Part shown: positions 3,953-24,205 of the stretch, piece after piece | Layout: every line of letters begins with the position of its first letter | Position numbering within the stretch: the stretch's first letter is position 1 | Virus record (IMG/VR): IMGVR_UViG_3300038412_000036 | Coordinates: 3,123-67,122 of that record | Strand: one strand, 5' to 3' | From: a virus | Lineage: Duplodnaviria > Caudoviricetes | DNA length: 64,000 nt | The notes under the pieces: model-generated | What the model saw: only the letters and a program-made list of their open reading frames with translations | The model's database searches: none | What the model was told of the DNA's origin: nothing | Program-made: the position numbers and the translations under genes

Positions 3953-4031
3953 CAGGGCGTGGGGGAGTTTGGCCGTCCCCGCCAGTCTCGGACACTGGAG
4001 ATCGTCGGTTCAAATCCGACCGCCCTGACCA
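3953..4031 (+). tRNA. tRNA-Pro(CGG)
   Basis: Cloverleaf by hand: acceptor CAGGGCG/CGCCCTG, anticodon arm CCAGT-CTCGGAC-ACTGG, T-loop TTCAAAT, encoded CCA. Confidence 0.92.
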
Positions 4032-4056
4032 ATCCCCAAAATCAACGCTGAGCCTT

Positions 4057-4130
4057 ACGGGCTTGGTGTAACGGTAGCACAACGGGCTCTGAACCCGTTT
4101 GTCTGGGTTCGAGTCCTAGAGCCCGTGCCA
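4057..4130 (+). tRNA. tRNA-Gln(CTG)
   Basis: Acceptor ACGGGCT/AGCCCGT, anticodon arm ACGGG-CTCTGAA-CCCGT, T-loop TTCGAGT, encoded CCA. Confidence 0.92.
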
Positions 4131-4132
4131 GT

Positions 4133-4207
4133 TGGAGAGTGGCGAAGTGGTAACGCGCCGCACTGTTAATGCGGTCACCGCAGGTTCGAAACCTGCCTCT
4201 CCAGCCA
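4133..4207 (+). tRNA. tRNA-Asn(GTT)
   Basis: Acceptor TGGAGAG/CTCTCCA, anticodon arm CCGCA-CTGTTAA-TGCGG, T-loop TTCGAAA, encoded CCA. Confidence 0.92.
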
Positions 4208-6245: not shown

Positions 6246-6274
6246 CTTGCAAACCCACCGAACGGGGCTATAGT
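6246..6274 (+). promoter_or_regulatory. sigma70-type promoter, divergent from early cluster
   Basis: CTTGCA...TATAGT, 30 nt upstream of ATG 6304. Confidence 0.55.
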
Positions 6275-7215: not shown

Positions 7216-7455
7216 ATGGCAAAGCTCACCGCAAAAGCCCGAAAGAACATCAAGCCGTCCAAGTTCGGCGTCCCGCCGAAGAACGGCAAGCCGGGCAAGT
7301 ACCCGATGGAAGACAAGTCGCACGCCGCGAACGCGGAAGCCCGCGCTACCCAACAGGTCAAGAAGGGCAAGCTCTCGCCCGCGCAGGCTGCGAAGATTCG
7401 CCACAAGGCACAGCACGTGCTCGGCGACGCCGATTCGCGCTATCACAACTGCTAA
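7216..7455 (+). CDS. small basic phage protein (DUF6582-like)
   Basis: MAKLTAKARKNIKPSKFGVP...KYPMEDKSHAANAEAR resembles the L..R..LP.S.F..P..RKYP..D..H.RNA.AR phage family; GGAGA RBS. Confidence 0.55.
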   Translation: MAKLTAKARKNIKPSKFGVPPKNGKPGKYPMEDKSHAANAEARATQQVKKGKLSPAQAAKIRHKAQHVLGDADSRYHNC

Positions 7456-7459
7456 GCTC

Positions 7460-7663
7460 ATGAGCGATTATCTGGCAACACTGAGCCGCGTCCACGGGGT
7501 GGGCGGCGGCACGGCGTATCCGGCCCCGGGCAGCAACGGGCCTGCTCAGATGCTTTACAACAACCATGCGACGTACCAGAATGCCAACAACGGACCGGTG
7601 ACCGAGGGAAGCGATAGCTGGCCCGGGTCACAGAACCCGACGACGCAGGAGACACGGCCATGA
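7460..7663 (+). CDS. low-complexity hypothetical protein
   Basis: 3' part of ORF 7160..7663; ATG 4 nt after previous stop; G/N/P/S-rich. Confidence 0.55.
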   Translation: MSDYLATLSRVHGVGGGTAYPAPGSNGPAQMLYNNHATYQNANNGPVTEGSDSWPGSQNPTTQETRP

Positions 7664-8061
7664 AGGACGCACTTGGACACGGCAGCAACGGACGCGGCAG
7701 CGGCTTGAACGATCAAGACCGCATCCACAAGGCAATCCACAAGCCGGGCACGAGCTACCTTGATCCGCACGACCCGCGTGGCGCGCATTCGACCGGCATC
7801 CAAGCGCTGCCGAACATGCAGCGTCGCCACTTCGAAGCGATTGCGGCGGAGTTCAAGAGCCAACCCGATGTCGGCACGCCGGAACACCTCCAACGCGTCA
7901 ACCAAATGGCTGATCGCCTCTCTACCACAAACCCCGGTTTCCGCCGGGACTTCTTCGTGAAGGCAGCGACCGGCGGTGGCTACAACAACAAATCACGCGG
8001 ACGCACCTCCGGCATGTCGAAGGCGGCGGGCGTGATCAAGCAAATGCGCGGCGGTAAGTGA
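7660..8061 (+). CDS. KDAxGHGSN-tag protein 1
   Basis: Starts MKDALGHGSNGRG; cargo MQRRHFEAIA...NPGFRRDFFVKA resembles a small-phage-protein family. Confidence 0.8.
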   Translation: MKDALGHGSNGRGSGLNDQDRIHKAIHKPGTSYLDPHDPRGAHSTGIQALPNMQRRHFEAIAAEFKSQPDVGTPEHLQRVNQMADRLSTTNPGFRRDFFVKAATGGGYNNKSRGRTSGMSKAAGVIKQMRGGK

Positions 8062-8552
8062 TGAAAGACGCACTGGGACACGGCAGCAATGGACGCGGCG
8101 GCCGGGTAGCGAAGCCTATCCCGAACCACCCGTACCACCAGAAGACCGACGCAGAGCTTCGCTACATCGTCAAGGATGCGAAGGAAGCGGCGGATGCTGC
8201 ACAGAGCATGGGCAAGCTCGAAACCAAATACAACGATCAGGTCAACGACGCCGCCACCGTGCTCGGCTACCGGGCGCGCGGCGGTCAGTCCGACGCTCCG
8301 GCCGACAGGCTGGCGAGCGGGCCGAAGTCGGAACCGGTGCCGATCCACGATAGCATGGGCGACGGCCGCCAATACTGGGGCTCGTACAAGTCGGGCAACA
8401 GCTACAAGACCACCGGACCGCACGGCTCACGCGAAGAGGCAGCGAGCGCGGCGATGTCCAAGCTGACCGGCCGCGCCGCCATGCGTGGGGAAGTCTCCAC
8501 GGGATACGGCACGCACGGTCCGAGCTTCGACATTCGCTGGCACCGCAAGTAG
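8058..8552 (+). CDS. KDAxGHGSN-tag protein 2
   Basis: Starts (M)MKDALGHGSNGRG; contains DRLASGPKSEPVPIHDSM. Confidence 0.8.
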   Translation: MMKDALGHGSNGRGGRVAKPIPNHPYHQKTDAELRYIVKDAKEAADAAQSMGKLETKYNDQVNDAATVLGYRARGGQSDAPADRLASGPKSEPVPIHDSMGDGRQYWGSYKSGNSYKTTGPHGSREEAASAAMSKLTGRAAMRGEVSTGYGTHGPSFDIRWHRK

Positions 8553-8561
8553 GAGCGGCAC

Positions 8562-8951
8562 ATGAAGGACGCAAAAGGTCATGGCAGCAACGGACGTGGC
8601 AACTACTTCGGCCCTCCGCCCGGCCCGCAGACCAAAACCTATCAAGCTCGGCAGGCGATGAAGGCCGCCAAGAACCCAGACTCTTGGGAGAACAGGTACG
8701 GCACGCAAGCTGATCGCGACTACGCCATGGCGCACGCGATCAACGACGGTGTCGATGCGGGCTTCAAGAGCGCTCGCGCCCTCGCTGGTATAGACGGTGC
8801 CGCAGCTCGCGCACTGGCCTCCGGACCGAAGTCAGCTCCGGCCCCAGTGCACGACAGCATGCGCTCGTCCGAGGAGGACGAGTACAACCGCGACCTCAGA
8901 CTGCGCATCCGCAACGGACAGGTCGGCAGCGGAATGAAATTCCGAGGGTGA
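8562..8951 (+). CDS. KDAxGHGSN-tag protein 3
   Basis: Starts MKDAKGHGSNGRG; AGGAG RBS; contains ARALASGPKSAPAPVHDSM. Confidence 0.8.
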   Translation: MKDAKGHGSNGRGNYFGPPPGPQTKTYQARQAMKAAKNPDSWENRYGTQADRDYAMAHAINDGVDAGFKSARALAGIDGAAARALASGPKSAPAPVHDSMRSSEEDEYNRDLRLRIRNGQVGSGMKFRG

Positions 8952-8955
8952 GCTG

Positions 8956-9123
8956 ATGGCTTACGATGACGAATTTGATGACGAGGACGTGGCGAACGCT
9001 CTCGGTCAGGGGCACAAAAAGTCCAAGCGGCCGTTCATCCATCCGTCGATGGTGACGGAGATGAACGCGGACGAGATCGACAGCGACCCGGACAACTGGG
9101 ACGACGATTCTGACGGAGACTAG
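8956..9123 (+). CDS. 55-aa highly acidic protein carrying motif B
   Basis: Hand translation MAYDDEFDDEDVANALGQGHKKSKRPFIHPSMVTEMNADEIDSDPDNWDDDSDGD*; fills the gap in the coupled array. Confidence 0.7.
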   Translation: MAYDDEFDDEDVANALGQGHKKSKRPFIHPSMVTEMNADEIDSDPDNWDDDSDGD

Positions 9124-9125
9124 TC

Positions 9126-9473
9126 ATGAAGGACGCACAGGGGCACGGAAGCAATGGGCGTGGAGGATCGAAACCCACGTTTGGCAAGAGGGCTCCGCCG
9201 CTTCGACGTAGCTATCTGTCTAACGGTGGGCGCGGTCCTCTGGGCTCTGCGATTCAGGGCAATAGTTCGAATGCAGATGCAGCGCGTGCGCTCATGGGTG
9301 CGTTGAAGAGCACGCAGGCTCCGGTGCACCCGGCCATGCAATTTCAATCCGACCGGGCTGATCCCGGTCCGCGTCCCGACATCACCGAAGCTCTGCGCCA
9401 GCGCAGCTACGCAGGGACGACGCAATTCGGCGACAGCAACTTCGGGCGCACACTGAAAAGACCGGGACGATGA
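9126..9473 (+). CDS. KDAxGHGSN-tag protein 4
   Basis: Starts MKDAQGHGSNGRG; contains ARALMGALKSTQAPVHPAM. Confidence 0.8.
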   Translation: MKDAQGHGSNGRGGSKPTFGKRAPPLRRSYLSNGGRGPLGSAIQGNSSNADAARALMGALKSTQAPVHPAMQFQSDRADPGPRPDITEALRQRSYAGTTQFGDSNFGRTLKRPGR

Positions 9474-9730
9474 ATCACCTGATGAAGGTACGGCAGCCGA
9501 ATTTCGGTCACGCTATCGGAGTGTCGGTTCTGGTGCCGTACATTCACAGCTTCGTCCCGACGCCCAACATGTTGCCGACAGAGATCGCCTACCACAAGGG
9601 GCGCGAGGTGGCGCAGCGCGGCCGGAAGACGGACGAGTGCCCATACGATGCGGGGGAACATCCGCACTTAAACGAGCACTGGATGCGGGGGTACAACGAC
9701 CATGCCACTAATCAATCTGACAAGACCTGA
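9470..9730 (+). CDS. Rmf/CrpP-fold-like protein
   Basis: C-terminal AYHKGREVAQRGRKTDECPY...HWMRGY matches the RMF pattern G..AG..G.S...CPY......W..GW. Confidence 0.55.
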   Translation: MNHLMKVRQPNFGHAIGVSVLVPYIHSFVPTPNMLPTEIAYHKGREVAQRGRKTDECPYDAGEHPHLNEHWMRGYNDHATNQSDKT

Positions 9731-9899
9731 CGGTTCGAAAGTAGAGCTTAACCCCGACACGATCTCCTCAATCAAGCCCGCGCTCCCGAACGTGTACGTC
9801 AAAGGCGTCAAGTCCGTGGTGCGAGATGACGGCGAAGACTTCGCCGTCACCGAGTCTATCATGGAGATCAATGCGATTCTGAAAGCGATTGGACGATGA
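9702..9899 (+). CDS. FlbD-like small protein
   Basis: LINLTRPDGSKVELNPDTISSI...FAVTESIMEI matches FlbD pattern I.LTRL.G..F.LN.D.IE.I...V.ES..EV. Confidence 0.55.
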   Translation: MPLINLTRPDGSKVELNPDTISSIKPALPNVYVKGVKSVVRDDGEDFAVTESIMEINAILKAIGR

Positions 9900-10354
9900 A
9901 AGACGCGAAGGGACACGGCTCCAATCCCCGGGGCTCTCACATGCAGGGCGTGATGAAGGCGACATCGCCGATTCGCGTCAAGCCCGAAGTCGTGCAGCAC
10001 ATCCAACGCAATCCCGGCGGCTTCTCGGTCACTCCCGATGGCAAGACGCCGACGAACGGCTACATGGTCTCGGCACCCGGCCGCACGAAGATCGTTTCCG
10101 AATCGGACATCTCCGGGCCGAGCGGTCATAAACTGATCGAACAATACGCGAGCGACAACGCAGACGCACTGCGGCAGCCGGGCGCGCACATCGGCGGCTG
10201 GACGGACAAGTCGAGCGGCAAGACCTACCTCGACATCTCGCACAACATCAAAGACCGCAACCGAGCAGTGAGCGCGGGCGTCAAGAGAAATCAGATCGCG
10301 ATCTGGGACGTGAGGAAGCAGCGCGAGATCAGCACCGGAGGGACCGGTGAGTAA
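9896..10354 (+). CDS. KDAxGHGSN-tag protein 5
   Basis: Starts MKDAKGHGSNPRG; globular-looking cargo GGFSV...GYMVS...GGW.D...TYLDIS...NQIAIWD. Confidence 0.8.
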   Translation: MKDAKGHGSNPRGSHMQGVMKATSPIRVKPEVVQHIQRNPGGFSVTPDGKTPTNGYMVSAPGRTKIVSESDISGPSGHKLIEQYASDNADALRQPGAHIGGWTDKSSGKTYLDISHNIKDRNRAVSAGVKRNQIAIWDVRKQREISTGGTGE

Positions 10355-10571
10355 AAATCCCGGACTAGGGCAGTACGTCGATGGCTCGCAAGGTGCACTC
10401 ACGATGGATCAGCGGGCGGCGCGCACTCTGGCGCAGGATCACCCGAAGTCTGCCGTGCCTCCCCCGCATCGCCCGGGGATGGCTTTGGATGGTCCGGGAG
10501 AAAGCGAAGCATCGGATCAGCCGCGCAGCGGCGTCGGCGGCGCGCTCCCGATTGGTGCGTTCCAGAGCTAA
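10347..10571 (+). CDS. small protein carrying motif B
   Basis: GTG start overlapping the upstream stop; ARTLAQDHPKSAVPPPHRPGM. Confidence 0.6.
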   Translation: MSKNPGLGQYVDGSQGALTMDQRAARTLAQDHPKSAVPPPHRPGMALDGPGESEASDQPRSGVGGALPIGAFQS

Positions 10572-10661: not shown

Positions 10662-10997
10662 ATGGCATTCAAGGGCAGCGCCGCACCGGTCAAGCCGGGC
10701 ATGCAGGACCAGACCAGCTCCAACATCGCGCGTGATGGTGCAGCGAAGAAGCCGCAGACCAATTTCCCGGTCAAAGAAGGCATGCGCAGCCGCGTCGGAG
10801 AAGTCTCCGGCGTCTCGGGCAGCGGCCCGAACGGCGCACCGGACGCCTCCTCGCCGAACCCGCTCGACCCGACGAAGCGCGGCAAGACGTTCCCGGATGC
10901 TCCCGCCAAGTGGGGCATGCGGGACGCGAACGGCAGCAGCGTCAATCACGAGCTGGGCAGGCAAATCCTCAACGAGGGTGCGCTCACCGGCCGCTAA
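10662..10997 (+). CDS. disordered hypothetical protein with PxKxGM repeats
   Basis: ORF track; PVKPGM, PVKEGM, PAKWGM. Confidence 0.7.
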   Translation: MAFKGSAAPVKPGMQDQTSSNIARDGAAKKPQTNFPVKEGMRSRVGEVSGVSGSGPNGAPDASSPNPLDPTKRGKTFPDAPAKWGMRDANGSSVNHELGRQILNEGALTGR

Positions 10998-11007
10998 GGA
11001 GTAGCCA

Positions 11008-11361
11008 ATGGCGTTTCCAATCGATTCCCAAAGCGCGGTCAGCAAATCGCTGCTTGAGCAGGGCAACCAGTACATCAAGTCGAATGAGTCGGCTGATCCG
11101 GACGGGGACAAGAATGTCTCCTACGGTCAGAACGGCTACACCGGCCCGTCGAGCGATCTGCCCGGCCAGCGCACCACGTCGGGCTTCCTGCCCGAGCTGG
11201 AGCCGACCAAAGATGTCGTCGCCAACTACGCCAAGGATGCCGACTTCCAGACCCGCAAGGTCTCGGCGGATCAGTATCCGGCCGCGCACGGCATGAAGCC
11301 GCGCGTGCAGGAGAACATCTTCTCTGCTCCGTCCCGCCCCGTAACCTCCCGAGGAAAATGA
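11008..11361 (+). CDS. disordered hypothetical protein
   Basis: AAGGAG RBS; PAAHGM near C-terminus. Confidence 0.7.
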   Translation: MAFPIDSQSAVSKSLLEQGNQYIKSNESADPDGDKNVSYGQNGYTGPSSDLPGQRTTSGFLPELEPTKDVVANYAKDADFQTRKVSADQYPAAHGMKPRVQENIFSAPSRPVTSRGK

Positions 11362-11756
11362 TGCTGAAGAAAATCTCCGTGGCATTGCTCGCGACAGCTC
11401 TGCTCACGTCCCCCGTCTTCGCCTCCAAATCCAAGCCCAAGCCCAAGCCAGCTCCGGCCACGGTCGAGAAGTGCGGCAACGCCAACGAGCTTTTGAAAGC
11501 CGTCACGGCCGACGGAGCCAAGGTCGAGTTCGACCTTTCCGGCGACGATCTGGCGAAAGTCAACGCCTACGTGAAGAGCAAAAACGGCGTGACCTCTCCG
11601 GACGGAACCGACCGAGTCATCGTCATCAGCAAGCCGGACGCGTCGGTGTGGATCGGCATCATCTTCGTCAAGGGCTGCGCGGCTATCGTCTCGCCGATCA
11701 ACCCGGCAAATTTCAAGAAGATCATTGACAGCGCTTTGAACGGCGGGTCGGTCTGA
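11358..11756 (+). CDS. secreted/periplasmic protein
   Basis: Sec signal MMLKKISVALLATALLTSPVFA followed by KP-rich linker; one Cys pair. Confidence 0.7.
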   Translation: MMLKKISVALLATALLTSPVFASKSKPKPKPAPATVEKCGNANELLKAVTADGAKVEFDLSGDDLAKVNAYVKSKNGVTSPDGTDRVIVISKPDASVWIGIIFVKGCAAIVSPINPANFKKIIDSALNGGSV

Positions 11757-11920
11757 TGGCTGCGACTATGAATCTGCGGGAGCTTCAACAGAAGCCCCGC
11801 CACGTGCTTGCTACCATCGTGTTTGAGCAGGCGGCCTATATCGAACAGCTCAAGAAAGAGCTGACGCTGGAGCGCAACACCAACGTACACCTCAAGGCGA
11901 GCATCGCTGAGAGGACATGA
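11756..11920 (+). CDS. hypothetical coiled-coil peptide (54 aa)
   Basis: Hand translation; TGATG and ATGA coupling at both ends. Confidence 0.5.
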   Translation: MAATMNLRELQQKPRHVLATIVFEQAAYIEQLKKELTLERNTNVHLKASIAERT

Positions 11921-12645: not shown

Positions 12646-13431
12646 ATGGGCCGCGCTGAAGCAGACGATCTTGACTTTCTGGGTCCAGAACCCGCACCTC
12701 CGCAACGCACCTCCCGTGAATGGCAGGCTCTCGCTCGCAAAGAGCCCTTTGGCATGACCCGGATCACGTCCGGACCCGGCCGACCGCCCGGCGGCCAGAA
12801 GCGCACGCCCGAAGTCATGCTGCGCATCGTCCAACAGCTCTCCAAGCTCCCAGTCGCCAAAGACGCCGCTCTCGCGAACGGCGTCACGACGCATGCCATC
12901 AAGCTTTGGCTCACCAAGAGCCGCCTCGGCCAGCCCGGGGATGGTTTCGATCTCGTCATGAACCCCGACGACGATCCGTCCGAACACGTCATCGTTCGAT
13001 TCCACGACGCATACGATCAGGCACTGAAAGACGGCGCGCAGGAGGTCTACCGCGCGGCACTGACACGTGCGCTCGGCTATCGCGAGCCCCTGACGTTCCA
13101 AGGCCGCGTGATCTACAAGCTCGACCCGGAGAAAGTTCGCCTCGGCATGGAGGGCATGGACGCTTACCTGCTCGATGACGAGGGCCGCCCGGTGCCCGAG
13201 AGCGTCGAGAAGCAGGACCCGGACCTCATGCAGTTCCTGCTCAAGGGCCTGATCCCCGAGACCTTCGGCAACCGCACGAAGATCGAAATGGAAGGCAAGA
13301 TTAGCGGCGTGCTCGTGGTCGCGCAGAAGGCGGTCAGCGGCGCTGATCTCAACGCGGAAGAAAAGCTTTACACCAAAGAAAAACTACAGGTCACATTCGA
13401 AGATGACGGCGACGGCGACGATAACACGTGA
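12646..13431 (+). CDS. terS: terminase small subunit
   Basis: Directly upstream of TerL; AALTRALGY..P...DPDLMQFLLKG..PE.FGNR pattern typical of TerS. Confidence 0.7.
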   Translation: MGRAEADDLDFLGPEPAPPQRTSREWQALARKEPFGMTRITSGPGRPPGGQKRTPEVMLRIVQQLSKLPVAKDAALANGVTTHAIKLWLTKSRLGQPGDGFDLVMNPDDDPSEHVIVRFHDAYDQALKDGAQEVYRAALTRALGYREPLTFQGRVIYKLDPEKVRLGMEGMDAYLLDDEGRPVPESVEKQDPDLMQFLLKGLIPETFGNRTKIEMEGKISGVLVVAQKAVSGADLNAEEKLYTKEKLQVTFEDDGDGDDNT

Positions 13432-14998
13432 CTATGTCGGGAAGGGTGTCGTCGCTGCGAAGTTCAAACGTCGCGGTGCTGACTGGATTCCGATGGTCGA
13501 AGAACCGGACGGTAGCTTCCGCGAATGCGCGTGGGCTCCGCAAGCCGGTTCGCAGTATTTCTTTTTGCGCGACCCCACTACCGAGGTCCTGTACGAAGGA
13601 ACGCGCGGCCCCGGCAAAACTGACGCACTGATCATGGACTTCGCCCAAGATGTCGGGCGCGGCTGGGGCGCAGAGTGGCGCGGCGTGCTGTTCCGTCAGA
13701 CGCATCCGCAGCTCCGCGACGTGATCGAAAAGTCGAAGAAGTGGATCAAGCGTATCTGGCCCGATGCCTTCTTCAACGAGATCAAAACATTCTGGGAGTG
13801 GCCGACCGGCGAGCGGCTTTACTTCTCGCACTTCATGACGCCGTCCGACTACGCGAACTACCACGGCCACGCCTATCCGTGGATCGGCTGGGAAGAGTTG
13901 ACCAACTGGGCGACGCCGGACTGCTACAAGGTGATGTTCTCGTGCTCGCGTTCGACCGCGAAAGGCATGCCGAGGAAAATCCGCGCGACAACGAACCCGT
14001 ATGGCGTCGGCCACAACTGGGTCAAGTCGCGCTTCCGGCTGCCGGTGCCGCCGGGACAAATCCTCAGCGACGTGATCACGGACGCAGTAGACGAGAATGG
14101 GAACAAGGAGCCGCCGCGTCGCTCGGTGCACGGCTTCCTCGATGAAAACCAACTGCTCCTGCACGCGGACCCCGGCTACAAAGACCGAATCCGCGCCGCT
14201 GCGCGTAACGCGTCGGAGTTGGCTGCGTGGATGGACGGATCGTGGGACATTGTCGCGGGCGGCATGTTCGACGACATTTGGTACGAATACAAAGACACGA
14301 TTGTCGTGCCTCCGTTCGAAGTCCCGAAGTCGTGGCGCATCTACCGCGCATATGACCACGGTTCGTCGAAGCCGTTCTCTGTCGGTTGGTACGCCGTCAG
14401 CGACGGCACCGACCTGAAATTCCCGGACGGGAAAGTCCGCGCCACCGTGCGCGGCGATCTGTTTCGGATCAACGAGTGGTACGGGTGGCGCGGTCAACCA
14501 AACGAAGGCTCGCGCATGCTGGTGCCCGACATCGCTCGCGGAATCGTCGAGCGGGAGATCAAGTGGGGCTACCGCGACCAGCAAGGCAAGTGGTCGAGGG
14601 TCAGGCGAGGTCCGGCGGACTCGCAAATCTTCGACGACATCAACGACAACAACGCGACGATTGCGGCCGACTTCGAAAAGCCAGTGATGCTCAACGGCGT
14701 CAAGCACCGAGGCGTCTTCTGGGAGAAGGCCGACAAGGGTCCGGGCTCGCGAAAGCAAGGTTGGGAGCAGGTCCGAAAGAGGCTCAAGGCGACCAAACGA
14801 CCCGAAGGCGGCTATCGCGAAGTGCCCGGCCTCTTCATCACGAGCAACTGCGTCCATTGGCTTCGTTGCGTGCCCGTGCTGCCCCGCGACGAGAAAGACA
14901 TCGACGACGTGGACGACGAGAGTGAAGACCATAACGGGGACGAGACGCGGTACATGCTGCGCTTCGAACCCCGATCAATGTCATCAAAACGTGTTTAA
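13403..14998 (+). CDS. terL: terminase large subunit
   Basis: Walker A-like YEGTRGPGKT, Walker B IGWEELT, RATTNP, nuclease YDHG and EDHNGDETRY; start uncertain. Confidence 0.92.
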   Translation: MTATATITRDYVGKGVVAAKFKRRGADWIPMVEEPDGSFRECAWAPQAGSQYFFLRDPTTEVLYEGTRGPGKTDALIMDFAQDVGRGWGAEWRGVLFRQTHPQLRDVIEKSKKWIKRIWPDAFFNEIKTFWEWPTGERLYFSHFMTPSDYANYHGHAYPWIGWEELTNWATPDCYKVMFSCSRSTAKGMPRKIRATTNPYGVGHNWVKSRFRLPVPPGQILSDVITDAVDENGNKEPPRRSVHGFLDENQLLLHADPGYKDRIRAAARNASELAAWMDGSWDIVAGGMFDDIWYEYKDTIVVPPFEVPKSWRIYRAYDHGSSKPFSVGWYAVSDGTDLKFPDGKVRATVRGDLFRINEWYGWRGQPNEGSRMLVPDIARGIVEREIKWGYRDQQGKWSRVRRGPADSQIFDDINDNNATIAADFEKPVMLNGVKHRGVFWEKADKGPGSRKQGWEQVRKRLKATKRPEGGYREVPGLFITSNCVHWLRCVPVLPRDEKDIDDVDDESEDHNGDETRYMLRFEPRSMSSKRV

Positions 14999-15060: not shown

Positions 15061-16749
15061 ATGGCGCTCCCGGACAAGCATCCCGAGTACGTCAATCGAC
15101 TCGGCGAGTGGATTCAGATGCAGGACACCTATGACGGCGAGCGTGCGGTCAAGACGAAGCGTCTTGACTACCTGCCTGCCACCGAGGGCATGATCCAAGA
15201 CGGCATGAACACCCCGTCATCGCCCGGCTGGAAGGACTACGAAGGCTATCTGCTCCGCGCGGTCTTCCGCAACTTCGTCAAGGAAGCCGTGCAAGCAATG
15301 GTCGGCATCCTGCACAACAAGCCCGCGATCATCACGCTGCCGCCCCGACTTGAGGGCATGATGCAGTCGGCGACGATTCAAGGTGAGACGCTGCAACAGC
15401 TCGTCCGCCGCATCTTCGTCGGCCAGCTCGTGAAGGGCCGCCTCGGATTGCTGGTGGATGCACCGACCGGTCAGGACGTGAACAAGGCGCTACCCTATAT
15501 CGCGGTCTATGACGCCGAGCGCATCATCAACTGGGACGCTGGTAGGCTCAACGAGGGCCGCAACGTCCTCCAGCTCGTCGTGCTCGACGAGAGCGGCTAT
15601 CGCCGCGAAGGCTTCACGTGGAAGAACGAACGCAAGTATCGCGTGCTCGCGCGTGGCGTGCCAGAGGATTTGGAGAGCGGCTGGGAGACCCCGGCCCCGG
15701 ATGCCGAGTACGCCCTCTGTGTCAAGGTCAATGATTCGAGCATGCCAACGCAGAAGGACTTCATCGTCCCGCATATCGGCGGCGTCACGCTCAAGGAAAT
15801 TCCGTTCGTGTTCATCAACGCGAACGATTGTGTGCCAGAACCGGAAGTCCCCCCACTTCTCAATCTGAGCAACCTGTCGCTGGCGATCTATCGCGCCGAG
15901 GCAGACTACCGTCAGACACTGTACTTGCAGGGCCAGCAAACGTTGGTCCTGATCGGCACAGAGGGCGACGACGGCGACGAGAACACGCCGCTCCGGATCG
16001 GCAACAAAGGCATGATCCAAATGAAGCAGGGCTCGGACGCCAAATACATTGGCGTCAGCGCGTCCGGCCTCGCCGAAATGCGGCAGTCGCTGACGAACGA
16101 CAAGACGGACGCGGCTGCCGAAGGCGTTGCGTTCCTCGATGTTGGCAACTCGGCACACGAGAGTGGTGAAGCTCTGCGCGTCCGCGTAGCGGCACGAACC
16201 ACGACGATCAGCTCGATTGCGCACGCTGCGGAGTCGGGCATCGAGCGCGCCCTGAAGTGGGCCGCCGAGTGGGTCGGTGAGGACCCGGACACGGTCAAGG
16301 TCGAACTGCCGAAGGATTTCGCCGACCAGACGGTGCAGGGCGCGATGCTCCTCGCCATCATGCAGGCGAAGCAACTGGGTCTGCCGCTGTCGCTCAAGTC
16401 GCTCCATGGCTTGATGCGTGCCAACGACATGACTGAGCTGACCTTCGACGAGGAGAACGACCAGATCGAAGCCGAGAGCGAGACCATGCTCGGCACTATG
16501 GTCGGCCCCTACAACATGCCGACCGACGACAACTTCCTCGACGAGAACAACCCGGCCGATCTCGACCCGGCGGGCGGTGCAGGCGGCGGCCCCGGCGGAC
16601 CATCTCAGGACCCGCAGGGCGGCGGAGGCGCAACTCCTCCCGGCGCTCCGGTCCCGATCACGCCGCACGTGCGCGGCTCGCCGACACCTCTGAAGCTGAA
16701 GAAGGGCGCGAAGGGCGCGTCCGCCGGTAAGGGCAAGGGCAGCAAATGA
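15061..16749 (+). CDS. portal protein (DUF4055-type)
   Basis: Follows TerL; HPEY...G..AVK...YLP; ESGEAL; size 562 aa; G/P/K-rich tail. Confidence 0.88.
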   Translation: MALPDKHPEYVNRLGEWIQMQDTYDGERAVKTKRLDYLPATEGMIQDGMNTPSSPGWKDYEGYLLRAVFRNFVKEAVQAMVGILHNKPAIITLPPRLEGMMQSATIQGETLQQLVRRIFVGQLVKGRLGLLVDAPTGQDVNKALPYIAVYDAERIINWDAGRLNEGRNVLQLVVLDESGYRREGFTWKNERKYRVLARGVPEDLESGWETPAPDAEYALCVKVNDSSMPTQKDFIVPHIGGVTLKEIPFVFINANDCVPEPEVPPLLNLSNLSLAIYRAEADYRQTLYLQGQQTLVLIGTEGDDGDENTPLRIGNKGMIQMKQGSDAKYIGVSASGLAEMRQSLTNDKTDAAAEGVAFLDVGNSAHESGEALRVRVAARTTTISSIAHAAESGIERALKWAAEWVGEDPDTVKVELPKDFADQTVQGAMLLAIMQAKQLGLPLSLKSLHGLMRANDMTELTFDEENDQIEAESETMLGTMVGPYNMPTDDNFLDENNPADLDPAGGAGGGPGGPSQDPQGGGGATPPGAPVPITPHVRGSPTPLKLKKGAKGASAGKGKGSK

Positions 16750-16982
16750 GCGAACACGTCCGCAAGACATTCAAGCAAGCTCTCGACATCCTCGACCAAA
16801 GCGAACCTTTGATCCGTGAGGTGATCGAGAGCGAACTGTTCGATGCTGCGGGCGTGAACAACGTGAAGAGAAACCTGTCGAAGAAGGCGACCGACAGGGT
16901 GATGCACAAGATCGTTGCGATCCGGTCACATCACCTCAAGGCCGCTTTCAAGCATCTGAGAGCAAACCTTCCGCATGTATAA
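16746..16982 (+). CDS. hypothetical protein
   Basis: ORF track; ATGA overlap with portal. Confidence 0.6.
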   Translation: MSEHVRKTFKQALDILDQSEPLIREVIESELFDAAGVNNVKRNLSKKATDRVMHKIVAIRSHHLKAAFKHLRANLPHV

Positions 16983-17865
16983 TCCCGACCAATCACGCGA
17001 CTACCATGGTCGATTCGGCTCCGGCGGTGCGCCTACAACGCCCGAAGAAGCGAACACGCATGCGCAACAGATCGCAGGGAAGTACAAGCCACTCAACGGA
17101 CTGCCGCAGAAGCCCATCCAGCTCGGACAGAACTACTATACTCCGGGGCCGATTGCGTTCCTGAAAGACGCGGCGAACGAGTACATGCAGAAGGCCGGGC
17201 TCGAATATCACGAGCCGACCGACTACGCCAAGCTCAACAAGGATCGCGCGCAGGCGATTGCGCAGGAGTTCGACAAAGAGGTGCACAACCCGAACGACCC
17301 GGCCGTGAAGGCATCCTACGAGGCGCTGGCGAAAGAGACGCTGGCGCAATGGCAGGTCCTGAAAGACAGCGGCGTCAAGGTCGAGTGGATCAAGCCCGGC
17401 ATGCAGGACCCCTACGCGGCCAGCCCGCGCATGGCGGCCATGGATGTTGCCGAGAACAGGCATTGGTGGGGCTACCCGAGCGATCTCGGCTTCGGCTCCG
17501 ACGAAGAGTCGAAGAAGTACAACGCGGACAATCCGCTGCTCAAACCCGTCCCGGGCGAGATGATCGACGGCCGTCCGGTCGTCGTCAACGACGTGTTCCG
17601 GATCGTGCACGACATGTTCGGCCACCTCAAAGAGGGAAATGGCTTCCGTGCTGAGGGCGAGGAGAACGCTTGGCGCTCGCACGCTGCGATGTTTAGCGAT
17701 CTCGCGCGACCGGCGATGACGAACGAAACGCGCGGACAGAATAGCTGGGTCAACTTCGGACCCTACGGCGAGACAAACCGGACCGCGAGCGCAGCCAATA
17801 CGCACTTCGCGCCGCAGAAGATCGGCCTCCTGCCAAAGTGGGCGTCTGAAGAAGGTCGGGCATGA
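16975..17865 (+). CDS. putative head-associated protein with zincin-like HDxFGH...GEE domain
   Basis: N-terminal YNPDQSRDYHGRFGSGG motif; NDVFRIVHDMFGH...GFRAEGEENAW...ETRGQNSW. Confidence 0.6.
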   Translation: MYNPDQSRDYHGRFGSGGAPTTPEEANTHAQQIAGKYKPLNGLPQKPIQLGQNYYTPGPIAFLKDAANEYMQKAGLEYHEPTDYAKLNKDRAQAIAQEFDKEVHNPNDPAVKASYEALAKETLAQWQVLKDSGVKVEWIKPGMQDPYAASPRMAAMDVAENRHWWGYPSDLGFGSDEESKKYNADNPLLKPVPGEMIDGRPVVVNDVFRIVHDMFGHLKEGNGFRAEGEENAWRSHAAMFSDLARPAMTNETRGQNSWVNFGPYGETNRTASAANTHFAPQKIGLLPKWASEEGRA

Positions 17866-18215
17866 AGGCGAAGATCGACATCAACGGCGGCGAGCACGAC
17901 GCGGAGGCTTGGGACAAGCACCGCGCGAAGCATGCGCCAAAGGTACTCAAGATTCACGGTCGATCACTCTCGACATGGGCGAGGGAGATTTTGGGGCAGG
18001 ACTTGAAGCGGATCGAGACCGCGATCCAGCTCGGACTTACATCAGGGGACAGCAACACGGATATAGCCCATCGTGTCATTGGCAGCCGCAAGCATAACGG
18101 CATCAACGGCATGACTGAGGTAACGAGGCAACATATTCTCGCTCTCGGGCGAGGATATCTGCGCAAGCGCAAAACCCACATGAGTGGGGCTCCGGCGAAT
18201 GGTTCGACGGAGTGA
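17862..18215 (+). pseudogene. truncated MuF/head morphogenesis protein fragment
   Basis: GRSLSTW...DLKRIETAIQLGLTSGDSNTDIAHRVIG...G.TEVTR matches the mid-region of MuF-type minor head proteins but stops before the conserved C-terminal part; may still be expressed. Confidence 0.5.
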
Positions 18216-18234
18216 ACACGCGAAAGGTACTACC

Positions 18235-19101
18235 ATGAAACTCAAGGCATCATATGCGACAGCCGAGGAGATTCCGGAAGGCTATGCTGATCTCTACACC
18301 GAGCGCAACGGTCAGTTCGAATTGACCGGCATCGAAGGCGTGAAGTCCCAAGCCGACATCGACCGCATCTCGAATGCACTTCGCAAGGAGCGCGACGACC
18401 ACAAGAAGACCCGCGAGTCTCTTCAGGCGTTCGGCGACCTCAACCCCGAGGAAGTCCACACCAAGCTGGAAGGCTTCGACGCGCTCAACGAGCAGTACGA
18501 AGCTCTGAAAGCCAACGGTGGCGGCACTCCGGAGGCGACCGAGAACCTGATCGCTGCGCGCGTGAAGGCTGCCCTCGGTCCGGTCGAACGCCAGCGTGAC
18601 CAGCTCCAGCGTCGCATCGAAGAGACGCAGAAGCAGGTCGCCGAGCGTGAGAACGTCATCGGCGAGCTGAAGACCAACATGACGCAGGAGCGCATCGAGC
18701 GCACCGTGCGTGATGCGGCTGCGGCGGCGAAGCTCCTCAGCCCGGCGATCAGCGATGCGATCCTGCACTCGCGCGGTCTCTTCGAATACGAAGAGGGCAC
18801 GAACAAGATCGTCACCAAGGATGTGAACGGCGTCACCCCGGGCCTCACTCCGGCGGAATGGCTCAACGACATGAAGGAGAAGGCCCCGCACTGGTGGCCC
18901 GCATCCCTCGGCGGCGGAGCTGGCGGCGGCGGCCCGAACAGTGGCAACCTGTCGAACGCGCAAAACCCGTGGTCGCCGGAAGGCTGGAACATCACCCGTC
19001 AGGGCCAGTACATCAAGCAGCATGGCATCGAAAAGGCCACTGCAATGGCTGAGCGGGTCGGCTCCAAGATCGGCGCAACCAAGCCGACAAAGGCTGCGTA
19101 A
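18235..19101 (+). CDS. capsid scaffold protein
   Basis: Coiled-coil; Y..LY.E..G.F.L..IEG; EWL..MKEKAPHWWP; C-terminal NPWS...WNITRQG; position between portal and capsid. Confidence 0.85.
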   Translation: MKLKASYATAEEIPEGYADLYTERNGQFELTGIEGVKSQADIDRISNALRKERDDHKKTRESLQAFGDLNPEEVHTKLEGFDALNEQYEALKANGGGTPEATENLIAARVKAALGPVERQRDQLQRRIEETQKQVAERENVIGELKTNMTQERIERTVRDAAAAAKLLSPAISDAILHSRGLFEYEEGTNKIVTKDVNGVTPGLTPAEWLNDMKEKAPHWWPASLGGGAGGGGPNSGNLSNAQNPWSPEGWNITRQGQYIKQHGIEKATAMAERVGSKIGATKPTKAA

Positions 19102-23110: not shown

Positions 23111-24205
23111 ATGACTGTCTCGACCCAAATTTCGGACGTGATCGTCCCCGCAGTTTTCACGCCGTACACCCAGCAGCTCACGATGGAGAAGACCGCCATC
23201 ATCCAGAGCGGCATCGCGGCTCGCGATGACTTTCTGGACAACCTGCTCGCTGGCGGCGGTCTGACCTTCACCGTTCCGTCTTGGCAGGACATCGGCGATC
23301 CCGCCGAAAACGTGTCCTCGGACAACCCCAACTCGACCTCGACCCCGAACATCACGCAGGCGTCGGCCGAAGTCGCGGTGCGCCTCTCGCGTAACGCGAG
23401 CTGGAGCACGATGCGTCTCGCCACCGCTCTGGCCGGTGCCGACCCGATGCAGTCCATCGCTTCCCGCGTTTCGGACTACTGGGTCCGTCGCCTTCAGCGC
23501 GCGTTCGTCGCGGTCTGTCAGGGCATCTTCGCCAACAACGCCCTCGCCGACCCGACGCTGGGTCGCTCCGGGCAGGTCGGCATCAACGCTGGCTACGGCA
23601 AGCAGAACGACCTCACCCACGACATCTCCGGCGCGAGCTTCACTGCCGGTGTCACCAACTTCTCGGCTGCGGCGTTCATCGACGCCTCGACTCTGCTCGG
23701 CGACGCCGCGCAGGACGTGACGGCGGTGTTCATGCACAGCATCGTCTACTCGACGGCGCAGAAGAACAACCTGATCGACATGATCCCGGACGCCGAAGGC
23801 CACGTCAACATCCCGACGTTCCTCGGCCGCCGAGTGATCGTCGATGACGGCATGCCCAACCCGGCGGGCGACGCCTCCAACGGCTCCCAGACCGCCGCTG
23901 GCATCTACCACACGTGGCTTGTCGGCCCGGCTGCCTTCCGCCTCGGCGTCGGCACCCCGATTGTCCCGACCGAAATTTTCCGTTACCCGGATCAGGGCAA
24001 CGGTGCCGGTTCGGACGTGCTCTACAACCGCGTCGAATGGTGTATCCACCCGGTGGGTCACGCCTACGTCGGCTCCCCGTCCACGCAGGGCGGCCCGACC
24101 AACGCGGCGACCGCAGGCAACCTCGCCTATCAGACCTCGTGGGTCCGCGTGTTCCCCGAGCGCAAGCAGATCAAGCTGGCGCGTCTGATCACCCGCGAAT
24201 CGTAA
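23111..24205 (+). CDS. major capsid protein
   Basis: T.ISDVIVP.VF.PY; TFLGRRVIVDDGMP; WC.HP.G; size 364 aa; strong codon bias; followed by terminator. Confidence 0.92.
   Translation: MTVSTQISDVIVPAVFTPYTQQLTMEKTAIIQSGIAARDDFLDNLLAGGGLTFTVPSWQDIGDPAENVSSDNPNSTSTPNITQASAEVAVRLSRNASWSTMRLATALAGADPMQSIASRVSDYWVRRLQRAFVAVCQGIFANNALADPTLGRSGQVGINAGYGKQNDLTHDISGASFTAGVTNFSAAAFIDASTLLGDAAQDVTAVFMHSIVYSTAQKNNLIDMIPDAEGHVNIPTFLGRRVIVDDGMPNPAGDASNGSQTAAGIYHTWLVGPAAFRLGVGTPIVPTEIFRYPDQGNGAGSDVLYNRVEWCIHPVGHAYVGSPSTQGGPTNAATAGNLAYQTSWVRVFPERKQIKLARLITRES

Follow-up and report, generated by a model that had tools for sequence, protein, structure and literature searches.

In bacteriophage T4, the capsid-targeting sequence is a short N-terminal peptide present on the internal proteins IPI-III and on Alt, and the cargo, which includes ADP-ribosyltransferases, is delivered together with the DNA. 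The cargo-loading peptides of encapsulins are short, disordered and usually C-terminal, and they fix cargo to the inner side of the shell by binding a known pocket in its protein, which has the HK97 fold. N-terminal capsid-targeting signals have a precedent both in T4 and in the DarB protein of phage P1, in which a stretch of fewer than 30 N-terminal residues is sufficient to send a reporter into the capsid (PMC9024508). The present analysis deals with a 13-residue N-terminal peptide, MKDAxGHGSNxRG (the tag), shared by five genes of an uncultured soil phage. The window, that is, the whole stretch of DNA analysed, comprises 64,000 nucleotides (positions 3123-67122) of the 67-kb IMG/VR virus record IMGVR_UViG_3300038412_000036, whose estimated completeness is 63%. 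On balance, the tag would seem to be a portable leader for cargo that is packaged in the head and injected, and to be equal to the N-terminus that polyprotein modules would expose after cleavage.

The likeness to the T4 capsid-targeting sequence is one of concept, drawn for the window from the genes alone: in both cases a short, portable N-terminal peptide is carried by several otherwise differing proteins encoded near the head genes. The T4 signal contains the protease motif I/L-x-E, whereas the 13-residue leader has no I/L-x-E and no sequence likeness to it. T4 employs the prohead protease gp21 and a scaffold core, whereas neither a T4-type prohead protease nor such a core was detected in the window phage, and the T4 sequence precedes the cut, whereas the window-type leader follows the presumed cut and recurs inside polyproteins. 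In the preliminary description of this DNA a capsid-cargo system had been proposed by analogy with T4; the portable label, the change of cassettes, the position and the cargo types speak for it, whereas a T4-like I/L-x-E mechanism received no support. The P1 Dar proteins have no consensus leader, in contrast to the window-type leader, invariant across hundreds of families, and the likeness to P1 consists in a DarA_C domain found in one tagged protein. The encapsulin peptides are likewise short, conserved, disordered and terminal, occur on diverse cargos and are present in several copies on some of them, but they differ in sequence and are usually C-terminal, whereas the window-type leader is N-terminal. 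In the MuF-fused polymorphic toxins an N-terminal MuF domain (SPP1 gp7) precedes a C-terminal toxin, whereas no MuF domain was detected in the tagged genes with Pfam or PHROG. No description of a KDAxGHGS peptide was found in the literature, the coverage of which was incomplete.

Invariance of the tag and diversity of its cargos

The five open reading frames (ORFs) lie on the + strand and start at positions 7660, 8061, 8562, 9126 and 9896. Their N-termini read MKDALGHGSNGRG in both 7660 and 8061, MKDAKGHGSNGRG in 8562, MKDAQGHGSNGRG in 9126 and MKDAKGHGSNPRG in 9896. The common N-terminal tag reported at the outset was confirmed, and a six-frame scan of the window revealed no other copy of its core GHGS in the 64 kb. 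A degenerate DNA pattern of the tag gave five forward and no reverse matches in the whole 67-kb record, with no match for the reversed-pattern control. The array is tightly packed, with a GGAG-type ribosome site in three of the five tagged ORFs and overlapping stop and start codons in two of them.

Residues K, D, G, H, G and S of the tag are invariant in 103 tagged ORFs from the window and related contigs and also in 144 aligned tagged proteins, and the tag is always N-terminal in these sets. All the synonymous codons for these six residues are used among the 103 ORFs, and even serine is encoded by both codon classes (AGY in 82 cases, TCN in 21). Because synonymous codons vary freely in the tag, selection acts on the peptide, and this proposal, made initially for the five window genes, holds over the 103 ORFs. 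The accompanying statement that the DNA is not repeated was only roughly true. DNA upstream of the tagged genes is not conserved, but the stretch of about 48 nt encoding the tag is a detectable direct repeat with 60-83% identity among the five genes, the mismatches falling mostly at third codon positions. The five proteins had also been considered unrelated and completely divergent beyond the tag. This is correct for 7660 and 9896, the only two that are unrelated to the remaining tagged ORFs once the tag is removed, but 8061 and 8562 are paralogues (39% identity over 72 residues, E 5e-9) and a 21-residue internal motif is common to 8562 and 9126.

Comparison of the back-translated tag with IMG/VR yielded 22 loci on 17 distinct contigs. 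These loci contain many further tagged ORFs, in which KDAxGHGS(N/D/E)x(R/H)G is preceded by M, MA or MP. Five larger records carry 9-11 tag copies each, on one strand and nearly all within about 5 kb, with 0 matches for a control pattern. A profile search of the tag across phages had been suggested as a way of seeing whether the cargos vary. Such a search, with the first 34 residues against 1.84 billion representative proteins, gave 423 clusters (50% identity) at E <=0.001, and the cargos do vary, as 92 unique tagged proteins fall into 36 BLAST clusters after removal of the tag. A second element, xHxxG(V/I)xx(V/I), lies within the first 45 residues in 109 of about 128 small single-tag matches, and in its fuller form, xHxxG(V/I)xx(V/I)G, it comes within about 25-45 residues in most relatives. 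Because of the frequency of this element, the full leader is, as judged from these matches, about 25 residues, longer than 13 in most relatives. In gene 7660 the second element reads GAHSTGIQALP and is shifted further into the protein, to about residues 41-51.

The stand-alone KDAxGHGS form was encountered mainly in phages of soil Alphaproteobacteria. Among reference genomes, the tag was found in prophage-like regions of soil metagenome-assembled genomes (MAGs) of Hyphomicrobiales and other Alphaproteobacteria, with one tagged gene upstream of a gene similar to that of the large terminase (TerL) and another beside an integrase-like gene. The nearest cultured portals are those of Roseobacter phage RDJL3 and PhiJL001 (45% identity), and both phages lack the tag. 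The closest relative of the window is an 87.9-kb JGI contig (L050), in which most of the flanking genes encode proteins with 68-88% identity. The order of its array is the same as in the window, with gene 8562 absent and two extra tagged genes (109 and 207 aa) present. Tagged cassettes are, as this comparison of genomes indicates, gained and lost between close relatives, and the shuffling of tag and cargo among relatives that had been set beforehand as the test of a swappable label was seen between the window and L050.

None of the five window cargos matched a named family in Pfam or PHROG, polyvalent-type families included, and 7660 had no Pfam or PHROG match of any kind. This protein belongs to cargo cluster 2, with orthologues in nine other contigs (79% identity in L050). 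Most of the more than 400 tag-bearing clusters are also without a known family. Among the tagged relatives, Pfam searches detected ART-PolyVal in 1/103 and 4/144 proteins of the two sets, and the other domains found were GNAT acetyltransferases, an Arr-like ADP-ribosyltransferase and, in one protein, DarA_C. To judge from their predicted domains, these cargo types are typical of head-carried, injected or polyvalent effectors.

In Synechococcus phage S-CBP42, which is T7-like, an internal virion protein of 1610 aa contains a segment that matches the cargo domain of 9896 (about residues 30-152; 29% identity, E 7e-8), and this domain also matches small stand-alone mycobacteriophage proteins. In the PHROG search it was assigned to 3170/17808, and PHROG 3170 also matches the post-portal protein encoded at 16975, at different profile positions. 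An AlphaFold2 model of 9896 built from a 103-sequence alignment had a mean predicted local distance difference test score (pLDDT) of 82.5, with values of about 90 for residues 25-148 and below 50 for residues 1-21, and the leader is consequently modelled as a flexible, disordered extension ahead of a folded domain. No clear fold was assigned to this cargo model by comparison with the PDB using Foldseek and VIA-align (best Z 4.0). The window tagged proteins have 115-163 aa, and a single domain was confidently modelled in only one of them, 9896; for two others, low-confidence ESM Atlas models were the only ones available and showed weak structural neighbours. Self-cleavage at H-G-S, considered by analogy with the autoproteolytic sites H-F-S and H-L-T, was rejected in view of the predicted disorder of the peptide. 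Co-folding of the leader (residues 1-45, with the 9896 alignment) and the portal (residues 1-500, 60-row alignment) scored 0.00 against a mark of 0.32, a result that is neither for nor against binding.

Internal copies of the tag and alternative leaders

The small proteins were not the best matches in the profile search; these had 200-1700 aa and contain 2-4 internal copies of the tag, mostly about 100 residues apart (69-854). Genomic contexts were examined for four of these carriers (in contigs L046, L047, L048 and L049), and all four are head modules or include polyvalent-type genes. In L047, protein P0105 has a Peptidase_S78_2 domain (XkdF-type prohead protease) at residues 56-174 and tag copies at 181, 300 and 531, and its gene is located after those for Portal_Mu, Mu_F and Acb1. 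P0103 (L049) is encoded directly 3' of the portal gene and ahead of the cement and capsid genes, P0107 (L048) comes after an InPase/Zeta-toxin protein, and P0104 (L046) is near a 1732-aa ART-PolyVal protein. The Acb1 gene of L047 (7204-7833), which encodes an anti-CBASS phosphodiesterase and is placed between Mu_F and P0105, is an anti-defence gene among the head genes of a Mu-like module.

A joint of the form hydrophobic-x-K-A is recognizable upstream of the 48 internal copies: position -4 is V, I or L in 35 of them, position -2 is K in 31 and position -1 is A in 32. Where the tag heads a gene of its own, the place at which this joint ends is taken by the initiator Met, in some cases with a following Ala. 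When the array cargos were compared with the polyprotein modules by BLAST a single match was obtained, too little to establish that individual modules passed directly between array and polyprotein by fission or fusion. No gene common to the window and the four polyprotein contigs, as a candidate receptor or protease, was found.

These large carriers bring the system close to the polyvalent proteins described by Iyer, Burroughs, Anand, de Souza and Aravind in 2017 (PMC5512222). Polyvalent proteins, whose repertoire also includes MPTase and LPD domains, have in common with tag carriers or their neighbours the domains ART-PolyVal, DarA, Zeta toxin and InPase; they are likewise encoded by the head genes and predicted to be delivered together with the DNA, and it is in proteins of this kind that the leader recurs internally. 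As described there, a polyvalent polypeptide contains 2-15 effector domains, whereas the window proteins are single modules encoded by separate genes; the multidomain feature is shown by P0103-P0107 and other proteins with internal copies. A term search of PMC5512222 yielded no passage on a repeated joint or leader. The internal copies after a hydrophobic-x-K-A joint, the protease fusion and an interchangeable second leader are new here.

This second leader, leader B, has the form x-(F/Y)-(N/D)-P-x-(E/Q)-x-R-D-x-x-G-R-(W/F)-..-G-G and is N-terminal on post-portal proteins. The post-portal slot is occupied by a protein of about 800 aa with leader B in four of the five related contigs fetched, by a 296-aa protein (16975) in the window and by an untagged 598-aa protein in the fifth contig. 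Among the matches listed, 102 of the 120 homologues of the 16975 protein carry leader B, with variants such as ..HPRDHGRF.. and ..FNPNHDERGRF... Leader B is also present in the same contigs as the internal tags, once in the same ORF, mostly after a K-A joint, and one copy stands immediately ahead of an ART domain. The family of 9896 comprises 102 clusters, of which 95 have the KDA tag, three a leader of type B and three a third leader, the remaining one being truncated at the N-terminus, and in all six clusters with an alternative leader the same second element follows it. Since these 6/102 clusters carry leader B or the third leader, the leaders are, on the evidence of this family's sequences, exchangeable on one cargo. 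An alignment of the tag with leader B, in which a single gap is needed, gives [KR]-D-x-x-G-[RH]-(F)-G-S, and both have a Gly-rich stretch downstream.

The third leader, MAWSDAARQA..EARRA, replaces the KDA tag on P0066, P0072 and P0080 of the 9896 family. It also heads a small array protein in another contig (L034, 4253-4501), and a Pa193_gp24-family protein of L049 has a similar start, MPWTASEAK...

The AlphaFold2 model of the 16975 protein had a pLDDT of 92 and a predicted template modelling score of 0.90, with leader B disordered, and no known fold was found for it in the PDB with Foldseek and VIA-align (best Z 2.7). A zincin-like identity of this protein received no support from the fold searches. 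The top Foldseek rows were weak (E 0.18 or worse) and corresponded to aromatic amino-acid hydroxylases. These enzymes share an H-[ED]-x-x-G-H iron motif, and no relationship of 16975 to them is claimed. The 16975 family, with 656 homologues, has an invariant H-D-x-x-G-H, and one homologue is fused to Zeta-toxin/AAA_33.

Gene neighbourhood of the array

The features of the array and of the head module are presented in Table 1. The array ends 2.3 kb upstream of the gene for the small terminase (TerS). In the 3' direction it is followed by small genes (10662-11920), a gene for a 232-aa protein, TerS, TerL, the portal, the 296-aa post-portal protein, the MuF-like fragment and the scaffold, with the capsid gene further on. 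The location of the operon upstream of the terminase and head genes, noted initially for the window, was also found in the five related contigs fetched, all of which keep the order array, small genes, TerS, TerL, portal and large post-portal protein.

Table 1. Features of the tagged array and head module in the window (aa, amino acids; L050, closest relative).
Feature	Position	Strand	Length	Remarks
Tagged gene 1 (7660)	7660..8061	+	133 aa	Leader at residues 1-13
Tagged gene 2 (8061)	8061..8552	+	163 aa	From ATG at 8061; start overlaps the stop of gene 1
Tagged gene 3 (8562)	8562..8951	+	129 aa	Internal motif present; paralogue of 8061
Untagged acidic gene	8956..9123	+	55 aa	Inside array; variant of internal motif; orthologue in L050
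Tagged gene 4 (9126)	9126..9473	+	115 aa	Degenerate internal motif; L050 orthologue 75% identical
RMF-like untagged gene	9470-9730	+		Inside array; Pfam RMF, E 5.7e-9
Untagged gene	9702-9899	+	65 aa	Inside array; conserved in L050
Tagged gene 5 (9896)	9896..10354	+	152 aa	Leader at residues 1-21, then alpha/beta cargo domain at 25-148
Untagged gene closing the array	10347..10571	+	74 aa	Variant of internal motif
Two conserved small genes	10662..11361	+		Always between tagged array and terminase genes
Small terminase TerS	12646-13431	+		PHROG
Large terminase TerL	13403-14998	+		PHROG
Portal, DUF4055 family	15061-16749	+		PHROG; PF13264 on portal homologues
Post-portal protein (16975)	16975..17865	+	296 aa	N-terminal leader B (..SRDYHGRFGSGG)
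MuF-like fragment	17862-18215			Separate untagged ORF; PHROG 241, profile positions 133-198 of 679
Scaffolding protein	18184..19101	+		PHROG 206; Pfam Phage_scaffold
Major capsid protein	23111-24205			PHROG 247

Besides the tag, an internal motif, ..AAxxLASGPKSxPxP(V/I)HDSM, recurs between 8304 and 10481 in three tagged (8061, 8562 and 9126) and two untagged proteins (8956 and 10347); gene 8061 has it as ALASGPKSxPxP-H-DSM. A looser scan of the related loci for this motif gave 15 distinct copies, two of them from the window, located in 11 tagged and four untagged ORFs. Small untagged genes resembling 8956..9123 are present in contigs L010 and L008. The RMF-like gene is found at the same place in L050, with similar ORFs in L030 and L032, and a weak FlbD match was obtained in the Pfam search of the untagged pair 9470..9899. 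Just 5' of the array, a small gene (7216-7455) encodes a ..KYPxxDxxHAxxAxxRA.. motif and is conserved in L050 and L032.

The proteins of the two small genes between array and terminases are probably disordered, one of them with a conserved YGQNGY-G-SSDLPG, and they are candidate partners of the tagged proteins. In L040, from an alphaproteobacterial MAG, a homologue adjoins the single tagged gene, in surroundings that resemble a prophage. Where a MuF head protein would normally be encoded (16746-18215), the window has three separate ORFs (78, 296 and 117 aa), and the MuF-like piece is found only in the last. Three phage-borne tRNA genes, Pro-CGG, Gln-CTG and Asn-GTT, lie in a row at 3953-4207.

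Probable function of the leader and alternative explanations

If the tag is a leader for head-packaged cargo, the five genes would be stand-alone cargo modules marked for the head interior and delivered to the host with the DNA. The mark would be the disordered N-terminal KDAxGHGS(N/D/E)x(R/H)G, after which xHxxG(V/I)xx(V/I)G comes in most cases, and a module would be made up of a joint, the leader and the cargo. In the polyproteins, a protease would cut after the hydrophobic-x-K-A joint, and each freed module would start with the leader. In the window clade the modules would be separate genes, with the start codon placed where the cut would fall. The leader probably has to act itself, because it is invariant even where no cut is needed; as a free N-terminus it would be the working part, serving loading or retention in the procapsid and possibly priming exit. 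Leader B (xNPxxxRDxxGRW/F..GG) of the post-portal proteins would be a functional equivalent of the tag. The head interior is suggested as destination by the gene neighbourhoods, the cargo types, the prohead-protease fusion and the link to post-portal proteins.

Several results weigh against packaging in the head. Two of them concern the timing of expression: the operon begins at a sigma-70-like site (6247-6274), and no convincing terminator was found between the array operon and the late genes. No prohead protease was detected among the head-module ORFs of the window, and therefore a role in cleavage cannot apply here. When the cultured phages of INPHARED were searched by tblastn with 27-residue leader queries, the tag was not found beyond chance, a weak test because the query is short and a low-complexity filter was applied, and the cargos of 7660 and 8061 had no tblastn match among the same phages. 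The terminase, portal, scaffold and capsid proteins of the window have no BLAST similarity in the four polyprotein contigs, though the motif is identical. Because of this identity, a lineage-specific head protein is an unlikely receptor, and the motif could point to a conserved host target or to a general head feature. Finally, one address would suffice for a whole polyprotein, yet each module has one. Given the internal copies, the second leader and the identity of the motif across lineages, a simple model in which the peptide binds the scaffold or portal of this particular phage has become less obvious, and a processing joint combined with a leader has come forward.

A wider form of the same idea is possible but rather doubtful: KDAxGHGS and RDxxGRW/F could be dialects of one joint-plus-leader code by which many unrelated tailed phages would assemble, cleave and load head-delivered effector modules. 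The recogniser would then be common to all these phages, and not a lineage-specific head protein, modules would move freely between polyproteins and stand-alone genes, and the sequence by itself would suffice to predict injected effectors.

Alternatively, the leader could be a short docking motif that acts in the infected cell, where a conserved host factor such as a hub protein, a chaperone or a protease would recruit, refold or time the accessory proteins, and the array would be an ordinary early/middle accessory operon. The recurrence of one motif in phages with head proteins dissimilar by BLAST, as would suit a target conserved among hosts, the sigma-70-like start of the operon, a disorder resembling that of short linear motifs and the recurrence of two further short motifs in the same small proteins are consistent with this explanation. 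However, the tagged genes are consistently adjacent to head and packaging genes, both in the window clade and in three lineages unrelated to it, a prohead-protease domain forms part of one carrier, and leader B, which is able to replace the tag, heads post-portal proteins. Nor did plasmids yield the tag: the 27-residue queries found none in PLSDB by tblastn, again a weak test with a short query and the low-complexity filter on, and the INPHARED and PLSDB searches gave one chance-level match in all. Host docking is accordingly considered unlikely.

It is still less likely that the peptide represents no more than the part of a polyprotein protease site downstream of the cut, persisting in stand-alone genes as a remnant or for N-terminal trimming and having no targeting function. 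The regular location of the internal copies after the joint at module boundaries, mostly at intervals of about 100 residues, and the S78-type protease domain of one carrier would agree with such a site. However, a remnant would decay, whereas more than 240 stand-alone proteins keep six residues unchanged while synonymous change is free; the window clade has no detected head protease; and the known sites of head proteases, such as I/L-x-E for T4 gp21, are far more degenerate.

That the peptide has no function, and reflects common descent of duplicated genes or selection on DNA or RNA at the translation start, is very improbable and largely refuted: 8061 and 8562 are indeed paralogues and the DNA encoding the tag is 60-83% identical among the five genes, but the similarity ends abruptly after the leader in 36 cargo clusters with different domains and folds, third positions and even the serine codon class vary while the upstream DNA is unconserved, and the peptide also occurs far from start codons inside long ORFs.

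The presence of an identical peptide across phages with unrelated head proteins raises a testable question, namely what recognises the leader. If packaging and delivery by means of this leader are true, polyvalent proteins and arrays of small tagged genes would be two forms of one modular system, and the leader, being short and portable, could be used to load phage particles with foreign proteins. It would also provide a sequence rule for finding injected effectors, likely with anti-defence and host-takeover roles, in uncultured phages.

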